32,000 nt of DNA from Nanobdellota archaeon (GTDB taxonomy: Archaea; Nanobdellota; Nanobdellia; Woesearchaeales; JAUYGA01). The notes below the pieces were generated by a model. The model did not search any database. It had not been told where the DNA came from and saw only the letters and a program-made list of their open reading frames with translations. The translations under genes and the position numbers were made by a program. Shown here piece by piece: positions 4,317 to 22,082 of the stretch (the first letter of the stretch is position 1; each line of letters begins with the position of its first letter). The stretch spans positions 1 through 32,000 of the forward strand of contig JAUYGA010000030.1 of the NCBI GenBank assembly GCA_030690755.1, read 5' to 3'.

Positions 4317-5579
4317 TCAAGTTTTTTGGTTAATGATCCATTTCCATACGGGCATTATTGTAATTTTTTTATTCTTGATATTTATCTCATCTGCTTGCTC
4401 ATAGGTAAGCAACAGTCCTTTGTTCAGCTTGAATTTATCCATTGCTTCTAATAACCCATTCACTTCCCTCTCCTTATTCTTTTCATCCAACAAATGGCAC
4501 ACCTGTATGCTTTCTCTGATCTTTGTTCCATCTTTGACAATAAAGTCGCATTCATTTTTGCCGACGAAATAGTATGTTTCTTTTTTCGCTCTTTTTAGTT
4601 CTATAAAAACAATGTTTTCCAGTATCCTTCCCTTGTTTTCAGAGAAGTTCAGGCCAGTTATTTTATGGAAGGCCGAGTCGACAATATAGATCTTTCTCGC
4701 CGTGTTCAATTGTCTTTTTGCAGAGAAGTCAAATCTCAGAAGTTCGAAAAACAGATATGAGTTCTGCAAGTAAGAGATGTATTCTTTCACAGTTATTGCG
4801 TTTGACAAGCCAAGGCTTTTCTTAAGCGAATTATATGTGAATTGCGATGAAAGGTTCGTCGCCAATAAGTTTACGAGTTCCTTTAGTATTTTCTGTTTCT
4901 TTATGGCGTATCTGGCTATTATGTCCCTATAAAGAATGTTCTCATAGATTGTCCTTATATAATCATCATCTTTGTTTTTCAGATATTCAGGCATGCCGCC
5001 TTCATTTACAAAATATTCAAAGTTTTTTATTATTCTGATTTTTTTTTCAAGAACATATGCAGTATTTTTTTCAATCTTTATTTCTTTTGAATCAAGATAC
5101 TCTGAAAAAGAGAATGGATAAACTTCGAAGGCCTTATATCTGCCTGTTAATCTGGTTCCTAATTCTTTGCTGAGCAGGGAGGCATTAGAGCCTGTGATGA
5201 TTATCTTCTTGCCATTATCCTGAAGTCGTCTTACAAATGTCTCAAATTTTTCTATGTTTTGTATTTCATCGAAAAAATAGATTTTCGGTATTCCATAAGC
5301 TTCCATAAGCACCTCGTTAAGCAGCTCAAAATCCTGGGCCCTGAAATCTATGAATCTTTCATCTTCAAAATTGACATAGCAGTAATCATCTTTCTTTTGC
5401 ATTACCTGTTTAAGCAAAGTGGATTTTCCGCTTCTTCTGACGCCTGTTAATATTATTATGCGGTTATCCTTGAAGGAGTTCAGAATATCGGCTAGAATGG
5501 TTCTAGTAACTGTTTTTTCAATAGTGATTGTATTCTTTTGCTGAGCAATAACTTGCCTGAGAGTTTCTTTCTGTATCAT
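4317..5579 (-). CDS. AAA-type ATPase of the archaeal ATPase / DUF4143 family (COG1373-like)
   Basis: It has a Walker A motif (GVRRSGKST) and a Walker B-like motif (IYFFDEIQ). The length and C-terminal architecture are typical of the DUF4143 family. A TATA-like tttatatataaa lies about 25 nt upstream of the ATG. Confidence 0.7.
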   Translation of the reverse strand: MIQKETLRQVIAQQKNTITIEKTVTRTILADILNSFKDNRIIILTGVRRSGKSTLLKQVMQKKDDYCYVNFEDERFIDFRAQDFELLNEVLMEAYGIPKIYFFDEIQNIEKFETFVRRLQDNGKKIIITGSNASLLSKELGTRLTGRYKAFEVYPFSFSEYLDSKEIKIEKNTAYVLEKKIRIIKNFEYFVNEGGMPEYLKNKDDDYIRTIYENILYRDIIARYAIKKQKILKELVNLLATNLSSQFTYNSLKKSLGLSNAITVKEYISYLQNSYLFFELLRFDFSAKRQLNTARKIYIVDSAFHKITGLNFSENKGRILENIVFIELKRAKKETYYFVGKNECDFIVKDGTKIRESIQVCHLLDEKNKEREVNGLLEAMDKFKLNKGLLLTYEQADEINIKNKKITIMPVWKWIINQKT

Positions 5580-6240: not shown

Positions 6241-6423
6241 TTAGTTGAGTATTGGATGATTTGTTTTAAAGTTTGTGTAACATTTATGTAAAATTCAGAA
6301 AACTTTCAGAAATTCCGTGATAATTACGCATTTTTATCGTCAATAACCACTCGCCTCACTCGCCAACCACCCTGTGAAGGTATATAAATCACTTAATCCT
6401 ATGTAGAATAAGAAAAATAAAAA

Positions 6424-6465
6424 CTGGACTTATGATCCAGTCAACACATGCACCTGTGAAGTTGA
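6424..6465 (+). repeat. partial duplicate of the tRNA anticodon arm plus the start of the variable arm, followed by its own bulged hairpin
   Basis: 6424-6458 matches 6532-6566 at 33 of 35 positions. The copy folds as CTGGA/TCCAG (loop CTTATGA), followed by TCAAC-ACA-[TGCACC]-TGT-GAA-GTTGA. Confidence 0.8.
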
Positions 6466-6504: not shown

Positions 6505-6614
6505 GCCAGGGTGGTCGAGTCTGGTAAGACGCTGGACTTATGATCCAGTTGACACATGCACCTGTGTCACACGGGTTCAAACGTCAACATGGGCTGAAAA
6601 TCCCGTCCCTGGCG
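6505..6614 (+). tRNA. intron-containing tRNA: Ser-like class II body, anticodon loop CTTATGA (anticodon UAU), 19-nt BHB intron in the T-loop (6582-6600)
   Basis: The elements I can read are:
- Acceptor stem GCCAGGG/CCCTGGC, with G73.
- D arm GTCG-AGTCTGGTA-AGAC.
- Anticodon stem CTGGA/TCCAG.
- Variable-arm hairpin TGACACA-TGCACC-TGTGTCA.
- T stem ACGGG/CCCGT, whose loop is interrupted. Removing 6582-6600 restores TTCAAAT. Confidence 0.8.
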
Positions 6615-6732
6615 CATATATTTTAGATAGGATTGAAAATCAGTGATTTATCTGCGAGTCGCTCGCAGGCTCGCGACAAGTGCCTGCGCATTTTTAGTTA
6701 ATTTTTTATAGCCCTGTTATTTTCTTTAATTC

Positions 6733-11157: not shown

Positions 11158-12432
11158 CTATTCTTTTTCCCAGTCGACTTTCAAGAAGTGTGTTGCGCAG
11201 CTGATGCAAGGGTCATATGCTCTGATGAGTTTCTCTATCTCTAGAATAACTTGCTCTTTTGGCTTGTCAAGGATTGTCGGCAGGAATGCTGCAATATTTT
11301 CTTCTATATTTTGAAGGTTTTGTGTTGTCGGAGTTGTTATATTGCATGATGAGCAGAAGCCTTTTTCATCAATCGCGTATTTGTGGAACAATATTCCGCG
11401 AGGAGCTTCTGTTGCAGCTATTCCGATTCCAGGTTTTGGGATTATTTCAACAGGCTTTTCATCTTTCAGATCCAAACTCTCGAGAATCTCTATGCTTCGC
11501 TTTATGCCTTCCTGTATTTCGACTGCCTGCGAAAGATTGTTTATGAACGGCGAATATTTGTTTTTCTTGATGAAGTTTTGGTATTTTTGCGTATCCTGGC
11601 TTAGCAAACCATGATTGTTTATTATCCTTGCAACAGCTCCAACCATATAGCTTTTGCCTGTTTCTTTTGATGCAAATTCTGCTGTTGAACCTTCTCTGAA
11701 ATATTCTTTGAAATGCTGTTCATATGTCTCGACAGGAATGCATTTATCTCCCAAACAGTTTATGTGGTCATGGGAATAAAAGTAATTGTTTCCTGTCAGC
11801 GCAAAATATTCTTTGAATTTCTCAAACTTCGGAATTTCTAAATTATAGAATAATTCAGATGTTTTTTCTGCGTCTAGCTGTATGACTCGCAAATCATTTA
11901 TTAGTTTTTTCACGCATTCTTTTGTAGGTATCCTTGAAAATCCTCCGAGGATGGAAGCGACAGGATGGATGTCTCGTCCGCCGATAATATTGACCATATT
12001 ATTGCCTGCTCTTTTAATCCGCAGAGCAGTCATGATTTCATTCTTTTTGTCTTTTGCCATCCTTAAGGCGTTTTCATATCCGAGAAAGTCCGGAAGCGCG
12101 AGGAAGTATAGGTGGAGTATGTGACTTTGAATCATTCCGCCGATAATCAGAAGTTCTCTCAGCTTGTTTGTCTGTTCAGTCGGTTGAACTCCAAAACATT
12201 TTTCTACAGCAAGAACAGATGTTGTTGCGTGAACAGGCGAACATATCCCGCAAATTCTTGAGCTTATTGGCGAGAGATCATTGTATTTCTTGTCTTTAAG
12301 TATTCCTTCAAAATATCTTGAGCCTTCAAATATCTGAAGCTTGACCTTCTCAACCTGGCCTTTCTTGACCTTAATTCTAAGTCTTGCATGGCCCTCTATT
12401 TTTGTCAGATGATCTAAATTTATGGTTGTCAT
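11158..12432 (-). CDS. [NiFe]-hydrogenase large (alpha) subunit, group 3-type
   Basis: It has the N-terminal RICGICSPVH (RxCGxCxxxH) and C-terminal DPCISCATH (DPCxxCxxH) Ni-Fe ligand motifs. The size of 424 aa is typical of cytosolic group 3 enzymes. Confidence 0.85.
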   Translation of the reverse strand: MTTINLDHLTKIEGHARLRIKVKKGQVEKVKLQIFEGSRYFEGILKDKKYNDLSPISSRICGICSPVHATTSVLAVEKCFGVQPTEQTNKLRELLIIGGMIQSHILHLYFLALPDFLGYENALRMAKDKKNEIMTALRIKRAGNNMVNIIGGRDIHPVASILGGFSRIPTKECVKKLINDLRVIQLDAEKTSELFYNLEIPKFEKFKEYFALTGNNYFYSHDHINCLGDKCIPVETYEQHFKEYFREGSTAEFASKETGKSYMVGAVARIINNHGLLSQDTQKYQNFIKKNKYSPFINNLSQAVEIQEGIKRSIEILESLDLKDEKPVEIIPKPGIGIAATEAPRGILFHKYAIDEKGFCSSCNITTPTTQNLQNIEENIAAFLPTILDKPKEQVILEIEKLIRAYDPCISCATHFLKVDWEKE

Positions 12433-12449
12433 ATTAATTTCTCGTTATG

Positions 12450-12461
12450 GTTTTATATTTT
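12450..12461 (-). promoter_or_regulatory. TATA-like box for the hydrogenase large-subunit gene
   Basis: The minus strand reads caaaaatataaaacc, centred about 24 nt upstream of the ATG at 12432. This is consistent with a short-leader or leaderless archaeal transcript. Confidence 0.35.
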
Positions 12462-12468
12462 TGTTCAT

Positions 12469-12613
12469 GCGGCGGCAACAACAATGGCGGTACGACGGTC
12501 AAAATCTGCTGATTTTGTCCTGCTCGGTGCTCAAACGAAGTTTGGCATCACGCTCACTTTGTTCGGTGACATCCCATAAGGATTCTGCCTCGCCGTGCGC
12601 CGTTGTTGCCGCC
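12469..12613 (+). ncRNA. GC-rich structured element, copy A (unclassified family; strand assignment tentative)
   Basis: A 12-bp perfect terminal stem pairs GGCGGCAACAAC (12471-12482) with GTTGTTGCCGCC (12602-12613). Internal hairpins are 12497-12520 and 12571-12583. The element is homologous to 20003-20104 and, in reverse complement, to 20140-20219. Confidence 0.6.
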
Positions 12614-12628
12614 TAGTTTGTTATTTAT

Positions 12629-13147
12629 TCAGATTGTGCCTTCTTTTAGCATTTCTTTGAACATATCAACGCTGGGATAGTGGACTTTTTTGTCTTTTAG
12701 GAATTCATCAAGGTTTTCTTTTGATACGAACGCGGTATCTGCGACTTCAGACTCTTGCAGGACAAATTGGCCGTCTCTTCTTGTGTGGCCTGTTAGGAAT
12801 ATGTATGTGAATAATCTTTCTTTTTCATTTTCAATATATCTCTTGTTGATATATGTTAATTGGGGGTTTTTTATTCCCAGTTCCTCGCTAACTTCTCTCT
12901 TTGCAGCATCAATTGGCTCTTCTCCATAGGTAAGGCCGCCTCCGACGCCAATCTCCCAGCAGTCTGGAAACATCTTTTTTTCTTTTGTCCTCTTCAGGAA
13001 AAGATATTCTCCTTTTTCATTTTTCACAATAATTCTTAGTCCCCTGAATATCAATCTCTTTTGGAATGCTATGCTTCTTTCTTCTTTCCCAATCACCTTG
13101 TCGTTTTCGTCAACAATCACAAAATATTCTTTTGTTTCAGTTTTCAT
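12629..13147 (-). CDS. Nudix hydrolase
   Basis: It has a Nudix box (GGGLTYGEEPIDAAKREVSEELGI). The N-terminus (VDENDKVIGKEER) parallels that of the 8432-8944 paralog. Confidence 0.8.
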   Translation of the reverse strand: MKTETKEYFVIVDENDKVIGKEERSIAFQKRLIFRGLRIIVKNEKGEYLFLKRTKEKKMFPDCWEIGVGGGLTYGEEPIDAAKREVSEELGIKNPQLTYINKRYIENEKERLFTYIFLTGHTRRDGQFVLQESEVADTAFVSKENLDEFLKDKKVHYPSVDMFKEMLKEGTI

Positions 13148-13148
13148 T

Positions 13149-13694
13149 TCATCCTTTGTTCAACATTTTTTTTATCTTTTTAAATAACCAATATATTGAG
13201 CATGAGATTAAATAAAAATAATATGTTTGTAGAGGCAGTAAGATTATTAATATTATGGGAAATGATAGGCCCATCATTGATTTAAAAATTATTTCAGAAA
13301 GCCAGATAAGTATAAATGAAGGAAGCAAAAGAATTAAGCAAAAAAGCGTAAATAACTTGCCTGAATTACCATGCCCTATAATTAACCTCAACATTACATA
13401 TGCACCAACGGCGAGACTAATGAGAACTAAAGTTATAGTCATTATCAATTTCGCAATATTAAACTTCAAAAATTCACTTTTTAACCTCTTACGTATTAAG
13501 AATAGACTAAAACCAGGTATGAAAAATAAGATTATTGCCACCATAGAAAAAAGTACTGCTAAGGGCATCATTTCATTTTGATTGTTTATCTTTGATACCA
13601 GAAAAACAGTCAATATCAACAAAACAACTATACTGGCCACCAATCCGATTGCAATCCAGGTTTTTTCTTTTTTCTTTTGCATTTTATTTCTCAA
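13149..13694 (-). CDS. hypothetical multi-pass membrane protein
   Basis: It has several long hydrophobic stretches and is tightly packed in the same-strand gene string. Confidence 0.5.
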   Translation of the reverse strand: MRNKMQKKKEKTWIAIGLVASIVVLLILTVFLVSKINNQNEMMPLAVLFSMVAIILFFIPGFSLFLIRKRLKSEFLKFNIAKLIMTITLVLISLAVGAYVMLRLIIGHGNSGKLFTLFCLILLLPSFILIWLSEIIFKSMMGLSFPIILIILLPLQTYYFYLISCSIYWLFKKIKKMLNKG

Positions 13695-14229
13695 ACCCTA
13701 TTTCTTTTGCTATGCTTTGCATTGCTTTTATTGAGATTTCAAAAAACTTGTCGAATGTCATGCCTGTTTTTTCAATGTCAGCGATTAAATCTCGTCTGAC
13801 AGCAGCTGCGAATGCTGGCGCTTTAAACTTTTTCTTTAAACCGCTTACTTCCATTCCTTCAAGACCTTTTCTCATCAAGCCATAAGAATAAATTAATCCT
13901 GAAATATTATCTGCTGCAGACAATGCATAGTCAAGTTTGCTTTCTCTTTTGACTCCCAGGCCACCTTCATTATGTGATAAAATTGAATTAATAAGCGCTT
14001 CGTCATAACCTTCTTTTCTTAGTATCTCTGCGGTTTTCAGGCCATGGGTCTTTAGGTCTTTTTCAGTCTCAAAATCAAGGTCATGCAAAAGGCCTATTGT
14101 GTACCATTTCTCTTCGTCTTCGTTAAACTCGCGGGCAAGAAAGCGCATTATTGTACCTACCTCGAGGCAATGCATCCTGATTTCATTTGATTTGACGTGT
14201 TCTTCAAAAAGTTCTTTTACTGGTTTCAT
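13684..14229 (-). CDS. HD-domain metal-dependent phosphohydrolase
   Basis: It has H...HD signature residues (MHCLEV...IGLLHDLDFE). Its ends overlap both neighbouring ORFs. Confidence 0.7.
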   Translation of the reverse strand: MKPVKELFEEHVKSNEIRMHCLEVGTIMRFLAREFNEDEEKWYTIGLLHDLDFETEKDLKTHGLKTAEILRKEGYDEALINSILSHNEGGLGVKRESKLDYALSAADNISGLIYSYGLMRKGLEGMEVSGLKKKFKAPAFAAAVRRDLIADIEKTGMTFDKFFEISIKAMQSIAKEIGFEK

Positions 14230-14537
14230 TTTTTGTTTCGTTTATGTTTAATTATGTAGATTGTATATCCTATAATCGCACCCAAGAGAGCATAAAACGC
14301 TGGAGGTGTATATACTGCATACATCGCCCAGCATTCCATAGCATGACATGGAAAAAGAATAGATGAGATAAAACTTGCTGGAAAATAAAAAATGTGATAA
14401 ATTAAGTATGATAACGCACTGTCCTTTAATCTGACAAGGATAAAAAACAATAAACTAAGAAGTACCCCGAATAAAAATCCAACTAATGTTAAAATCCAAA
14501 TTATCTTATTTTTCTTTGTTATTATTCTTTGTTTCAT
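14226..14537 (-). CDS. hypothetical small membrane protein (103 aa)
   Basis: It has three hydrophobic segments and 4-nt overlaps with both neighbouring genes, which suggests translational coupling. Confidence 0.45.
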   Translation of the reverse strand: MKQRIITKKNKIIWILTLVGFLFGVLLSLLFFILVRLKDSALSYLIYHIFYFPASFISSILFPCHAMECWAMYAVYTPPAFYALLGAIIGYTIYIIKHKRNKK

Positions 14538-15412
14538 TTTTTGATATCTGTTTTATTATCAATACTGTCTGTTTTTGTTTCGATTTTCTTTTTCTCTTCA
14601 ATTTTGCAGCACTTCTTTTCTTCCAGAACTTTAAATCTGCTGAGCTTATTTATTATGTCTTGGTGCGTTAAACCAAAATTTTCAAAGAGTTTTATTTCTG
14701 CTGCGAAGTTTGCTGATGGTAATGGTCCTCTGCAGAGTGTGCATGGGAAATTGTCAACAGTGCATATTGCATTGCAGCCGCCATTTGTCAGAGGCCCCAT
14801 GCATTCTATTTTTTTTGTGAGAAAGCAGTCATTTCCGCGCTTGGGACATTGGTTGCATACTGGTCCGTTGAAAGGTTCGCTTTTTTTGTTTTCTGCAAAA
14901 TTGTCAAGGAATCGGACAAATTCGTCCTTTATTATTGGGCATCCTCTGAGGTAATAGTCGACTTTTATGTATTCGTCGATTCCTTTTGTTTCTAAAGAAT
15001 CTTTTAGCATGTGCTGGTTGTATACATATTTTATCAATTGATCATTTTCAATAAAGTTTCTGAGTCCAGGGATTCCACCATGGCATGCGCATGCTCCTAG
15101 AGCTACAACAAATTTTGATTTTTTCCTTATGCGCATTAGTTTTTCGAGTTCTTTTTTTGTTGTTATTGCGCCTTCTATTATTGCGATATCAAAATCAGAT
15201 TCGCGGTTTTTTTCTTTCAGTAGATGGAAGTATTGGACATCGAATTTTGATAAGAGTTCAATCAGATTGTCAAGAAAAAGTATTGTGAATTGGCAGCCCT
15301 GGCAGCATGTGAATGAGAAAAAGCCAAGCTTCGGCTTTCTGCCAGTATTTTCTTCTGGTCTCTTGGTTGACGCATTATTTGCCGCTGCTGATTTTGGTTG
15401 GCGATTCCTCAT
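14534..15412 (-). CDS. [NiFe]-hydrogenase small (delta-type) subunit, group 3-type
   Basis: The motifs FTCCQGCQ, ALGACACHGG, YLRGCP and the C-terminal Cys cluster (CNQCPKRGNDC...GGCNAIC...CTLCRG) follow the sulfhydrogenase delta / MvhG / FrhG pattern. Confidence 0.8.
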   Translation of the reverse strand: MRNRQPKSAAANNASTKRPEENTGRKPKLGFFSFTCCQGCQFTILFLDNLIELLSKFDVQYFHLLKEKNRESDFDIAIIEGAITTKKELEKLMRIRKKSKFVVALGACACHGGIPGLRNFIENDQLIKYVYNQHMLKDSLETKGIDEYIKVDYYLRGCPIIKDEFVRFLDNFAENKKSEPFNGPVCNQCPKRGNDCFLTKKIECMGPLTNGGCNAICTVDNFPCTLCRGPLPSANFAAEIKLFENFGLTHQDIINKLSRFKVLEEKKCCKIEEKKKIETKTDSIDNKTDIKK

Positions 15413-19794: not shown

Positions 19795-19938
19795 ATGCTG
19801 AATATATTCAATAATCTGGAATACCTGGAGCCGAGATGCCCAAAATGCGGAATTGTCCTAGATTATGATGGAAACACAAAATACGAAGAAAAACACAAGG
19901 CCCACGTCTGCTGCCATTGCGGCGTTGTTCTGAAATGA
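19795..19938 (+). CDS. small zinc-ribbon protein (47 aa), not in the ORF track
   Basis: My translation is MLNIFNNLEYLEPRCPKCGIVLDYDGNTKYEEKHKAHVCCHCGVVLK. It has two Cys pairs (CPKC ... CCHC) with typical zinc-ribbon spacing. Confidence 0.45.
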   Translation: MLNIFNNLEYLEPRCPKCGIVLDYDGNTKYEEKHKAHVCCHCGVVLK

Positions 19939-20002
19939 ATGTTGTTCTAATTTTTTTTGTAGGGTAGCTAATAATTCTGGCTTTAACTTTTTTATTCTAA
20001 CT

Positions 20003-20104
20003 GCGGCAAGAATAATGGCGGCAGACGGACATTTTCTACTGAAAATGTCCTACGCGACACTCCGTAGGAGCCATCCCTCGTCGCGTCTGCGCCATTGTTG
20101 CCGC
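20003..20104 (+). ncRNA. GC-rich structured element, copy B (same family as 12469-12613)
   Basis: It has a terminal stem (GCGGCAA..AATGGCG-G-CAGACG pairing with CGTCTG-CGCCATT-GTTGCCGC). A perfect 10-bp hairpin spans 20027-20050, and a second hairpin (CTCC-GTA-GGAG) spans 20060-20070. Confidence 0.6.
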
Positions 20105-20139
20105 ATGTGAAAATTATAGATTATGAAAAATCCAACTCT

Positions 20140-20219
20140 GGCGGCGGCGAGCCGGGGGACGTCCCTTACGGGGTGGCGAGCAGGGCAAATTTACAAAGTA
20201 AATTTGACCGTCGCCTGCC
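20140..20219 (-). ncRNA. GC-rich structured element, copy C (inverted relative to A and B; lacks the outermost stem)
   Basis: Its reverse complement aligns with the cores of A and B (GACGG - AT-rich hairpin - CCTGCTCG - short GC hairpin - CTCGCCG). The hairpins are at 20184-20209 and 20163-20172, and the second has a GUAA loop on the minus strand. Confidence 0.55.
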
Positions 20220-20298
20220 AGAAGTAGATGGATTTTTTAAATATCCCTTAAGAAAGATAGATTTGCGATGGGTTTTTATTATTTTGACTATTCCTTTA

Positions 20299-20322
20299 TT
20301 TTGCGCCGATGATGACGTTATC
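20299..20322 (+). repeat. 24-nt exact direct repeat copy 1 (contains a C-box AUGAUGA); second copy at 20459-20482
   Basis: ttttgcgccgatgatgacgttatc is identical at both sites, exactly 160 bp apart. Confidence 0.9.
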
Positions 20323-20462
20323 AACCCCTAACTTTTACGAAAAGTTAGGACCAAAAGAGGTCAGGCATAAAGCCTGACTACGCTCTTTGAAAGTAGCTTT
20401 GATGCGAGCGGTTTTTAATTCTTTCTCGATGGTTTTTTAAAAGAAAATGCAATATTACTTTT

Positions 20463-20526
20463 GCGCCGATGATGACGTTATCCCCGCGATGGTTTAGTCC
20501 ATCGATAAGATAACTTACTGAGGCGC
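20463..20526 (+). ncRNA. C/D-box-like K-turn hairpin RNA candidate
   Basis: 5' GCGCC pairs with 3' GGCGC. The C box AUGAUGA (20469-20475) faces the D box CUGA (20518-20521). Inner stems are GUUAUC/GAUAAC and CGAUGG/CCAUCG. Confidence 0.55.
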
Positions 20527-20690
20527 GCTTAAATTCAGTTTTTTTAAGTCATTTAAATTGCAAACAATAGTTCACAATTTAAGCATCATCCCAGACTTCA
20601 TCGTCTTTGTTATCCCAGAGCTCTTTCATTTTCTGCTGCTGAACTCTATGTAGAAATTTGTCGTATTGACTGCTTTTTTTTATCAGCATT

Positions 20691-22082
20691 TTATTTCTCT
20701 TTAATGAATCCGTATCCAATCAGTCTGAATCTTGTTCCGACTCTTCTGGAGATTGTTACTCTTGCGCCGATGTCTGCGCATACCGGTATCTTAAGCTTGC
20801 AGTGGAACTTGTTTTTTCCGAGAGAATCGACTATTCCTACAGTCGCGGATGAATTGACATTCAACATTAAAGGTTCGCCAAGTTTTATCGGTTCTACATC
20901 AAGCTCTTTATCAGATCCGACAACTCTCTTGAGAAGGTGCGGCTGCATTGTTAGCTCGTACCAAATCTCTGGCAATTTTCCTGGCAGGCCTACGATTGCT
21001 CCGCTTAATGTATCAGCTTTTACAATGCCTGGATCAAGCTGTGTCAGTATCCCGACTGATCCGCCTGGATGAATCTGATTTACTTTGACGTTTCCTGTGA
21101 TGGCGCTGACTATTTTTGTTTTTATTGGTATCCATACTTTTCTGTTTTTCTCTTCAATTTCTCGTCCAGGTTTTATTTCGATTTCATCTCCGACTTTCAG
21201 TATTCCTTGCTTTAATGATCCTCCAAGGACGCCGCCGACAATCTTTTCAGGTGAAGAACCTGGTTTGTTGATATCAAATGATCTTGCCACAAACATGATT
21301 GGTGTTTTTGTGTTGTCTCTTTCTGGCGTAGGTATTTGCTTTTGTATTGCCATTATCAATGCATCGATGTTTATTGTGTGCTGGGCAGAAATTGGTATGA
21401 TTGGAGCGTTTTCATAGCTTGTCCCTTTAAGGAAGGATTTTATCTGCTGATAGCTTCTTTGCGCCTGCTCTTTTGGGACTAGGTCTATCTTGTTTTGGAC
21501 AACAATTATTTTTTTTATTCCGACAATCTCTAAAGCTGTCAGATGTTCCCGTGTTTGAGGTTGCGGGCAGAATTCGTTTGCTGCTACGAGAAGCAAGGCG
21601 CCGTCCATTATGTTTGCGCCAGACAACATTGTCGCCATAAGTGATTCGTGCCCAGGCGCGTCGATGAATGATACTTTTCTTTGAGGAACTGCAGCTGCTC
21701 CGCATTTTGGGCATTCTTTTTTTGCGCAGTAGCATTCTGGCTCTTCGCAGTTCGGGCATTTATAGATTACAGCGTCAGCATATCCCAGTCTTATTGTGAT
21801 TCCTCTCTTGATTTCTTCAGAATGCGTGTCAGTCCATTTGCCTGAAAGTTTTTCTGTCAGCGTTGTCTTCCCATGATCTACATGTCCGACAAAACCAATG
21901 CTTACTTCTGGCTGAGAACTCTCTATTTCATTGCCGCTTGCCTCTTCTAGAACAAAGTCTTTTTTCTTGGCAGCGGTTGCAGTTGTTTTCGGCTTTTGTT
22001 TCTTCTCTTTAACGCTTTTAACTTTTGCATCTGTTGATTCGTCAACTTTTTCTATTTTTTCAGTTTCCTTTTTCTTAGCCAT
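20691..22082 (-). CDS. translation initiation factor aIF2 gamma subunit, with a Lys-rich N-terminal extension
   Basis: It has a G1 motif ([10 protein letters not shown]), DAPGHE, NKIDL and a zinc knuckle ([20 protein letters not shown]). I prefer the start at MAKKK (22082) because tttataaa (22108-22115) lies about 29 nt upstream. The ORF track extends the ORF to 22124. Confidence 0.9.

Follow-up and report, generated by a model that had tools for sequence, protein, structure and literature searches.

Three GC-rich islands in one 32,000-nt stretch of DNA (hereafter the window) from an AT-rich, Woesearchaeota-like DPANN archaeon raise the question of whether they are structured RNAs, copies of a decaying repeat, or both at once. 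Window GC content is 36.7% overall, and the family-B DNA polymerase (PolB) encoded there has at most 55% identity to Woesearchaeota MAG proteins. An initial annotation had described the islands, elements A, B and C, as sharing one architecture, and its sequence statements hold: the motifs GACGGWCA, CCTRCKCG and CTCGYCG co-occur solely at A, B and C in a pattern scan of the window, A has a perfect 12-bp terminal stem followed by GGCG/CGCC and a bulged G, and B repeats this layout except that its outer stem contains one G.G mismatch. GC content is 0.535 at 20001-20200 versus a window mean of 0.367. Element A was also correctly placed between the Nudix stop (12629, - strand) and the start of the hydrogenase large-subunit gene (12432, - strand), two co-directional neighbours; the accompanying idea of an insulator or terminator gained no support, no T-run adjoining A on the - strand. 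The 1.2-kb spacer that houses elements B and C separates a 190-aa gene from the aIF2-gamma gene and also holds a C/D box sRNA; the essential PolB and aIF2-gamma genes are situated between the element copies of the window. Features are listed below; the strand of an element is that of the family orientation, which aligns all copies.

11158-12432, - strand: NiFe-hydrogenase large-subunit gene, start at 12432.
12469-12613, + strand: element A, a singlet; covariance-model score 55.9 bits.
12471-12482, + strand: 5' strand of A's P1, GGCGGCAACAAC, perfectly paired with 12602-12613 in RNA and DNA folds.
12483-12485, + strand: AAT bulge of A, read from the sequence.
12486-12498, + strand: segment of A with P1b GGCG (pairs with 12598-12601), bulged G 12490, P2 TACG (pairs with CGTG 12594-12597), then junction AC and the GG at the base of P3.
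12497-12520, + strand: P3 hairpin of A, GG-T-CAAAATC-TGCT-GATTTTG-T-CC, from RNAfold and a nine-sequence alignment.
12522-12593, + strand: P4' arm of A; GCTCGGTG (12522-12529) pairs with TGCCTCGC (12586-12593).
12530-12570, + strand: copy-specific 41-nt insertion with two extra hairpins inside the P4' arm of A.
12571-12583, + strand: HP2 of A, ATCC-CATAA-GGAT.
12602-12613, + strand: 3' strand of A's P1, GTTGTTGCCGCC, paired with 12471-12482.
12629-13147, - strand: Nudix gene, stop at 12629.
20002-20105, + strand: element B, left member of an inverted doublet; 80.7 bits.
20002-20013 and 20094-20105, + strand: P1 of B, with the G.G mismatch.
20014-20016, + strand: AAT bulge of B, followed by GGCG 20017-20020 (paired with CGCC 20090-20093) and bulged G 20021.
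20022-20024 and 20087-20089, + strand: P2 of B, CAG/CTG; P3 follows at 20027-20050.
20052-20058 and 20080-20086, + strand: P4' of B, ACGCGAC/GTCGCGT, all Watson-Crick.
20060-20070, + strand: HP2 of B, CTCC-GTA-GGAG.
20106-20137: 32-nt spacer of the B/C doublet, A-rich on the + strand.
20125-20238: outer A-tract/T-tract clamp round C; AAAAATCCA (20126-20134) pairs with TGGATTTTT (20229-20237).
20138-20221, - strand: element C, right member of the doublet, tail-to-tail with B; 76.1 bits.
20221-20217 and 20142-20138, - strand: outer stem of C, CTGGC/GCCAG, shorter than the stems of A and B.
20216, - strand: bulged A of C, followed by GGCG 20215-20212 (paired with CGCC 20146-20143) and P3 at 20209-20183.
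20181-20174 and 20154-20147, - strand: P4' of C, GCTCGCCA/CGGCTCGC.
20173-20162, - strand: HP2 of C, CCCC-GTAA-GGGA, followed by a C-rich bulge at 20161-20155.

RNA folding compared with dinucleotide shuffles gives z = -4.7 (A), -8.2 (B) and -3.1 (C), and DNA folding of the three gives z = -5.0 to -7.7 versus shuffles; the fold listed for B is its DNA MFE structure. Elements of the family are 80-145 nt long and GC-rich, with fold energies of -35 to -60 kcal/mol and often an A-tract/T-tract clamp, which is also present on the metagenome copies L164m, L313p and L164p.

The data refine the original linear list of motifs into a three-way junction. Its terminal rod runs from P1 (variable, often ...CAAYAAYAAU) through a 3-nt AAU-type bulge, GGCG/CGCC and a 1-nt purine bulge to P2 (NNCG/CGNN, 4 bp); the junction then reads P2, 'AC', P3, 'U' and P4' with HP2, with zero linker back to P2. 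P3 is an AT-rich hairpin of the form GG-N-CA(A/U)n...UG-N-CC, and P4' is an 8-bp helix that encloses HP2 and a C-rich bulge of 6-9 nt, G-rich on the other strand. Junction nucleotides are invariant (G-AC-GG-N-CA...UG-N-CC-U) and bulge spacing is fixed, and the motifs GACGG, CCTRCKCG and CTCGYCG correspond to the junction and the two P4' strands. An insertion of variable size, present in A and L092a, is confined to the P4' arm.

Preservation of pairing by compensatory change, first proposed from A, B and C, now extends to 9-11 copies from five independent loci. As originally described, hairpin 1 (P3) carries CAAAATC/GATTTTG in A, CATTTTC/GAAAATG in B and CAAATTTAC/GTAAATTTG in C, and hairpin 2 carries ATCC-CATAA-GGAT, CTCC-GTA-GGAG and CCC-GTAA-GGG, respectively. 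In the nine-sequence alignment, 18/32 base pairs have changed on both sides, 90.7% of cells are paired, P3 (helix 2) is 100% paired with 7 covarying pairs, and the covariation score is 0.390 versus 0.120 in shuffles (0/500 reach it) and at most 0.119 with slid partners, all of these numbers being inflated by an alignment made by hand in which the structure was already considered. Prediction of the helices from single sequences came first, and copies found later fit them. P4' is fully Watson-Crick yet different in B (ACGCGAC/GUCGCGU), L092b (CUGCGAC/GUCGCAG) and L313p (ACGAACCG/CGGUUCGU). An alternative fold X with a long P2 (NNCGACGG/UCGYCGNN) fits the counts about as well as fold Y, which contains P4'; covariation of pairs 41-78 and 42-77 (A-U, G-C, C-G, U-A) and the three perfect P4' copies just named tip the choice towards fold Y.

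Copies outside the window were found by scanning metagenome contigs with the three-motif pattern. Most of the matches listed were chance occurrences in GC-rich DNA, and the true copies among them lay in the low-GC contigs L092, L164, L172 and L179. A first covariance model, built from six copies, recovered all pattern-found copies, and a second, inverted copy in L092 was exposed by covariance-model search. Longer versions of the L164 locus added L313, with a canonical + partner (L313p) and a truncated - copy (L313m), and a highly diverged partner in L164 (L164p) reached only 14 bits. Beyond the window there are at least eight copies in at least four other low-GC metagenome loci. Within the window, A, B and C score 56-81 bits (E = 1e-8 to 1e-13), and no further copy was detected by covariance model, filters off included. 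Covariance-model matches are confined to the true copies (window A/B/C, two in L092, one each in L164, L172 and L179, and two in L313), with E-values of 1e-8 to 1e-17 across copies, and 100 GC-rich chance pattern loci, used as a specificity control, gave 0 matches. Together, the E-values and the covariation rule out chance hairpins, and both the existence of the family and selection on its fold are well established.

The initial annotation had found no known RNA class to match, and wider searches agree. No Rfam 15 family matched the elements of the window, L092, L164, L172 or L179 at the gathering threshold, the one match being an ordinary tRNA elsewhere. ARAGORN detected no tRNA at the elements, where the Rfam tRNA model is silent and no GTTCRAAT-type loop is present, and A, B and C lack RUGAUGA/CUGA boxes and an ACA box or pocket. 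Three further motifs were considered and rejected. Tandem G.A/A.G pairs of a k-turn or k-junction exist only on the complement and in 6/9 copies, being Watson-Crick in B, L092b and L313p, and the AAU bulge adjoins G-C pairs; an archaeal BHB motif has two 3-nt bulges, 4 bp apart and on opposite strands, whereas here the AAU and 1-nt bulges share one strand and the 3' strand is continuous; and a small ORF (ATGGCGG...) has no ATG in C and L172 and would have its peptide rewritten by the hairpin flips.

Arrangement and distribution are repeat-like. Three copies fall within 32 kb of this genome, and all copies are intergenic. Singlets occupy two loci (A and L172), and tail-to-tail inverted doublets occupy four (window B/C, L092a/b, L164p/m and L313p/m), the members always belonging to two different subtypes; in L179 only '...AUGCGCC' of a partner remains. 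Subtypes are common to unrelated contigs (C with L179, B with L092b, A with L092a, and L164m with L172). All copies are <75% identical, and divergence of >30% among A, B and C, without near-identical copies, gives no sign of recent proliferation. Flank similarity between the window doublet and the L092 doublet is short and not significant.

The family is also patchy among relatives. A second covariance model found 0 copies in ~0.75 Mb of related DPANN loci. Around PolB in 59 neighbourhoods from DPANN and Hadarchaeota MAGs, regular expressions and GC-stem scans gave only chance matches in GC-rich coding DNA, and covariance models gave no match. No copy was detected by covariance models in closest-relative contigs (aIF2-gamma 83-85% identity), and viral contigs searched with two patterns yielded chance matches only, none of which passes the covariance model. 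In a syntenic relative (hydrogenase 77% identity), genes for PolB, SdpI, the hydrogenase small subunit, HD, Nudix, a 169-aa protein and the large subunit are contiguous; the orthologous Nudix-hydrogenase site holds no copy, and there is a gap of only 15 nt where A would sit.

Decay and breakage are seen at several loci. L313m lacks 25 nt of its 3' rod, and L164p is barely recognizable. Strains L164 and L313 are ~100% identical to the right of the doublet spacer and ~60% identical over the left partner and its flank, and the drop coincides exactly with the doublet. Four independent short-read contigs (Logan, ENA) break inside copies: L001 ends at ~12547 and L305 at ~12556, both inside A (Logan), and L314 and L315 start inside an L164-type copy, which fits either repeats or strain heterogeneity there. 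No copy is flanked by a target-site duplication, and Pfam searches of the window and the other positive loci detected neither a transposase nor an integrase. Selection on structure, which the initial annotation had set against a decaying repeat, stands; the exclusion of a MITE or REP does not, given the patchy distribution, the empty orthologous site, the decayed copies, the doublets and the assembly breaks. The two alternatives had been set too far apart, since selection on structure and repeat-like behaviour are both seen in the data.

No clear strand signal supports reading the elements as structured RNA in the orientation first proposed. In that orientation there are 3 G.U pairs, all in A, versus 8 A.C oppositions, and six copies have tandem U.C/C.U; on the complement the 8 A.C oppositions become G.U and the tandems become G.A/A.G. 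RNA folding energy is lower on the complement in 8/11 copies, by ~2 kcal/mol on average. For the singlets A and L172, the better-folding strand is the mRNA-sense strand of the co-directional neighbours (2/2; chance expectation 1 in 4). These weak signals mildly favour the complementary strand as the acting one, and the strand data are equally compatible with single-stranded DNA. The first-proposed orientation has HP2 loops of GNRA or GNA type and T-runs after C, L164m and L313m. No promoter motif was found at a fixed distance from the copies; a separate scan for promoters and terminators of bacterial type was uninformative.

Our preferred reading, held tentatively, is that the family consists of structured extragenic repeats of the REP/BIME kind whose active form is a folded single strand. 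On this reading the repeat occurs either singly within co-directional gene pairs or as tail-to-tail doublets, is gained, lost and decayed among close lineages, and is under selection for the folded single strand of the element. That strand may be single-stranded DNA, recognized by the recombinase or transposase responsible for spreading the element, or RNA in read-through transcripts that blocks 3' exonucleases or delimits transcription units; the two could also combine, with one element serving as a single-stranded DNA mobilization substrate and as an RNA transcript-end or insulator module. The data demonstrate the family, its fold, the covariation, the arrangement and the patchiness, while mobility, the acting strand and any host-level effect are inferences. 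Subtypes common to unrelated contigs look like old paralogous genes, which speaks against a REP-like repeat, as do the invariant junction nucleotides and fixed bulge spacing, which are expected of a functional RNA or ribonucleoprotein.

REP, BIME and REPIN elements are mobilized by RAYT Y1 transposases (PMC3116915, PMC3733652). Like the present family, they are GC-rich, extragenic, multi-copy and single-strand folding, occur as singlets and inverted doublets, can sit inside operons and keep structure more than sequence; REPs also stabilize or terminate transcripts. REPs differ in being simple imperfect palindromes of 20-40 nt with a GTAG or CGTC tag, whereas the family has a three-way junction, two fixed bulges and conserved junction nucleotides; at 80-145 nt, its elements carry no GTAG/CGTC tag at the palindrome foot. 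Furthermore, its doublet members are different subtypes that cannot pair with each other, no RAYT/Y1 gene lies near any copy in the positive loci, and the host is a DPANN archaeon. REP/REPIN and attC may be regarded as the closest analogues in the logic of a structure-conserved, bulged single strand, with a different architecture and host.

A solitary 151-aa Y1_Tnp gene (IS200/IS605 TnpA/RAYT-like) lies at 11304-11759 of L316, a 255-kb archaeal contig, ~0.8 kb from a DUF7557/PemK module; the 20-kb stretch around it holds no family copy. In L092, a 22-nt direct repeat (GTTGGTTTGGCTTCGCTG core, 95% identical) at 4542-4563 and 4970-4991 brackets ~410 nt that hold the doublet and two further hairpins, and could be an integration or duplication scar.

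The main rival, though more doubtful, is that each copy encodes a small structured RNA that is transcribed on its own and acts in trans, with several paralogous subtypes in a genome, for example a protein-binding scaffold, an undiscovered ribozyme or an RNP component of one Woesearchaeota lineage. Strong compensatory covariation with invariant junction nucleotides, subtypes conserved across metagenomes, tolerance of a variable-size insertion in the P4' arm only, the HP2 loop types and the T-runs would all suit such genes. The setting offers some points too: B and C adjoin a C/D box sRNA in an sRNA-rich spacer, and the L164 doublet lies between divergent promoters, where convergent RNA genes would fit. 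Against this, strand bias is absent, the complement folding equally well or better, and there is neither a fixed-distance promoter motif nor a single-stranded variable segment usable as a guide. Absence from close relatives and ~0.75 Mb of DPANN DNA, truncated and degenerate copies, and the position of copy A inside an operon-like gene string that is contiguous in a relative also count against it. Hgc RNAs, GC-rich ncRNA genes of AT-rich archaea that Klein et al. reportedly obtained in 2002 from GC-content screens, are likewise small, highly structured GC islands in AT-rich archaeal genomes; they are conserved single- or few-copy genes with a clear strand, and no Rfam Hgc model matches the family. 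A wider formulation, which we consider rather unlikely, is that the copies are genes or cis-modules for a new three-way-junction RNA class in a Woesearchaeota sub-lineage, with at least four paralogous subtypes, each conserved among distant groundwater and sediment metagenomes, and with the invariant junction, the fixed bulges and the C-rich bulge (G-rich on the other strand) as a core that binds protein or ligand or is catalytic.

A classical MITE, a non-autonomous cut-and-paste transposon in which a transposase from another locus would bind the P1 stems as double-stranded terminal inverted repeats, is improbable. It would explain the 12-bp perfect terminal inverted repeats of A, the similar ones of B and L164m with their common sequence CAAYAAYAAT, the intergenic, multi-copy and patchy occurrence, and the assembly breaks inside copies. 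Yet target-site duplications are absent, C, L172, L179 and the L092 copies have other termini or none, the copies are highly diverged (<75% identical), and the internal helices covary, for which double-stranded DNA recognition would not select. Neisseria Correia, enterobacterial ERIC and pneumococcal BOX/RUP elements are structured MITE-like repeats that are transcribed into mRNAs, fold in the read-through transcripts and affect their processing or stability. They resemble the family in length (~100-150 nt), terminal inverted repeats and intergenic position; they differ in having target-site duplications and many near-identical copies, and are not known to show compensatory evolution over the several helices of a junction.

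More improbable still are integron-type attC sites or an analogue, that is, folded single-stranded DNA whose extrahelical bases are read by a tyrosine recombinase. Nanoarchaeota are known to have integrons (PMC9668308). The family shares with attC sites a fitting size (84-145 nt), a rod in which a bulged G and three unpaired spacer nucleotides keep fixed distances, folded-strand recognition as proposed here, and structure conserved while sequence diverges, and A has AAC/GTT at the inner end of P1. The bulged G or A and the 3-nt AAU/AAC bulge recur 4 and 8-9 bp below the junction, an arrangement that alone is not diagnostic of attC. The RYYYAAC/GTTRRRY core (R/L box consensus) is absent from both strands, the ends being GGCAACAAC...GTTGTTGCC, GCAAGAAT...ATTGTTGC and CTGGC...GCCAG, and the centre is the most conserved region rather than a variable one. 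Instead of direct arrays downstream of cassette ORFs, the copies form inverted doublets or stand alone; the essential PolB and aIF2-gamma genes lie between copies; and no locus encodes IntI or another integrase or tyrosine recombinase. Adjacent accessory genes such as toxin-antitoxin modules would suit a cassette, and L164m does adjoin a DUF7557/PemK toxin-antitoxin module, but a general link was rejected, with 0 elements in 57 kb round homologous DUF7557/PemK modules.

A diverged known RNA (5S rRNA, tRNA or pre-tRNA, SRP, RNase P, C/D or H/ACA) or chance hairpins and terminators is effectively refuted: this genome does have tRNAs missed by standard tools, and the complement carries GAGUAGGG, reminiscent of the 5S helix V region, but Rfam gives nothing consistent at E<=10 on either strand in six loci, the T-loop, C/D or ACA boxes and BHB motif are missing, the arm order is unlike 5S, and the covariance-model E-values and covariation speak against chance. 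The MITE, attC and known-RNA readings all fail because features that define those classes are missing.

The family is previously uncatalogued, with no match in Rfam 15 and no description in the searchable literature, where nothing specific was found on DPANN structured RNAs or repeats. Genomes of DPANN archaea are tiny and contain scant non-coding DNA, so that a multi-copy structured element kept by compensatory evolution is unexpected baggage. To our knowledge, no structured extragenic repeat family has been described in DPANN before. If the family is a mobile REP-like repeat, it would be the first of this kind in DPANN and would point to a single-strand-specific mobilizing enzyme. If it is an RNA, it would provide a new conserved fold with defined junction chemistry for a clade in which we know of almost no characterized ncRNAs. 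Either way, the covariance model offers a means of masking assembly-breaking repeats in Woesearchaeota MAGs, of taking a genome census and of guiding the design of RNA-seq, SHAPE and pull-down experiments.

Several features of the surrounding DNA merit description. The spacer of B and C contains a typical archaeal C/D box sRNA at 20461-20528 (+ strand; GCGCC-GATGATGA...CTGA-GGCGC), to which Rfam snoRNA matches are weak. Its first 24 nt are duplicated exactly 160 nt upstream (20299-20322), and the intervening 136 nt contain two hairpins (20327-20349 and 20360-20378), an arrangement that looks like an insertion or duplication within the gene. A truncated, C-terminal DUF7557 antitoxin remnant (20579-20719, - strand) abuts and overlaps the aIF2-gamma stop, which suggests a past rearrangement of the spacer; the full DUF7557 gene, of 74 aa, has a PemK toxin gene as its partner in L164/L309 and in thousands of Woesearchaeota contigs. 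Directly upstream of element B, a 47-aa ORF (19795-19938, + strand) with two CxxC pairs is zinc-ribbon-like, has no Pfam match and is followed by a T8 run. Around element A, the hydrogenase small (Oxidored_q6) and large subunit genes are split by unrelated genes for HD, membrane and Nudix proteins (window 11158-15412, - strand), and they are also split, in a different gene order, in the 77%-identical relative (L303 7603-11278).

Another GC-rich island (6650-6695, + strand) comprises the overlapping hairpins CTGCGAG-TCG-CTCGCAG and GCAGGC...GCCTGC followed by TTTTT; it has no covariance-model match and so is not a family member. It lies just 3' of a tRNA-like gene (6505-6616, + strand) with the anticodon loop CTTATGA (UAU, Ile) and two apparent non-canonical insertions, one forming a hairpin behind the anticodon arm and one of ~18 nt within the T-loop. 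This gene was missed by ARAGORN and is matched in its 5' half only by the Rfam tRNA model (25.5 bits, below the gathering threshold of 29). A 35-nt copy of its anticodon-arm region is present 108 nt upstream (6424-6458), and a 9-nt complement of its 5' acceptor region (ACCACCCTG) is present at 6366-6374.
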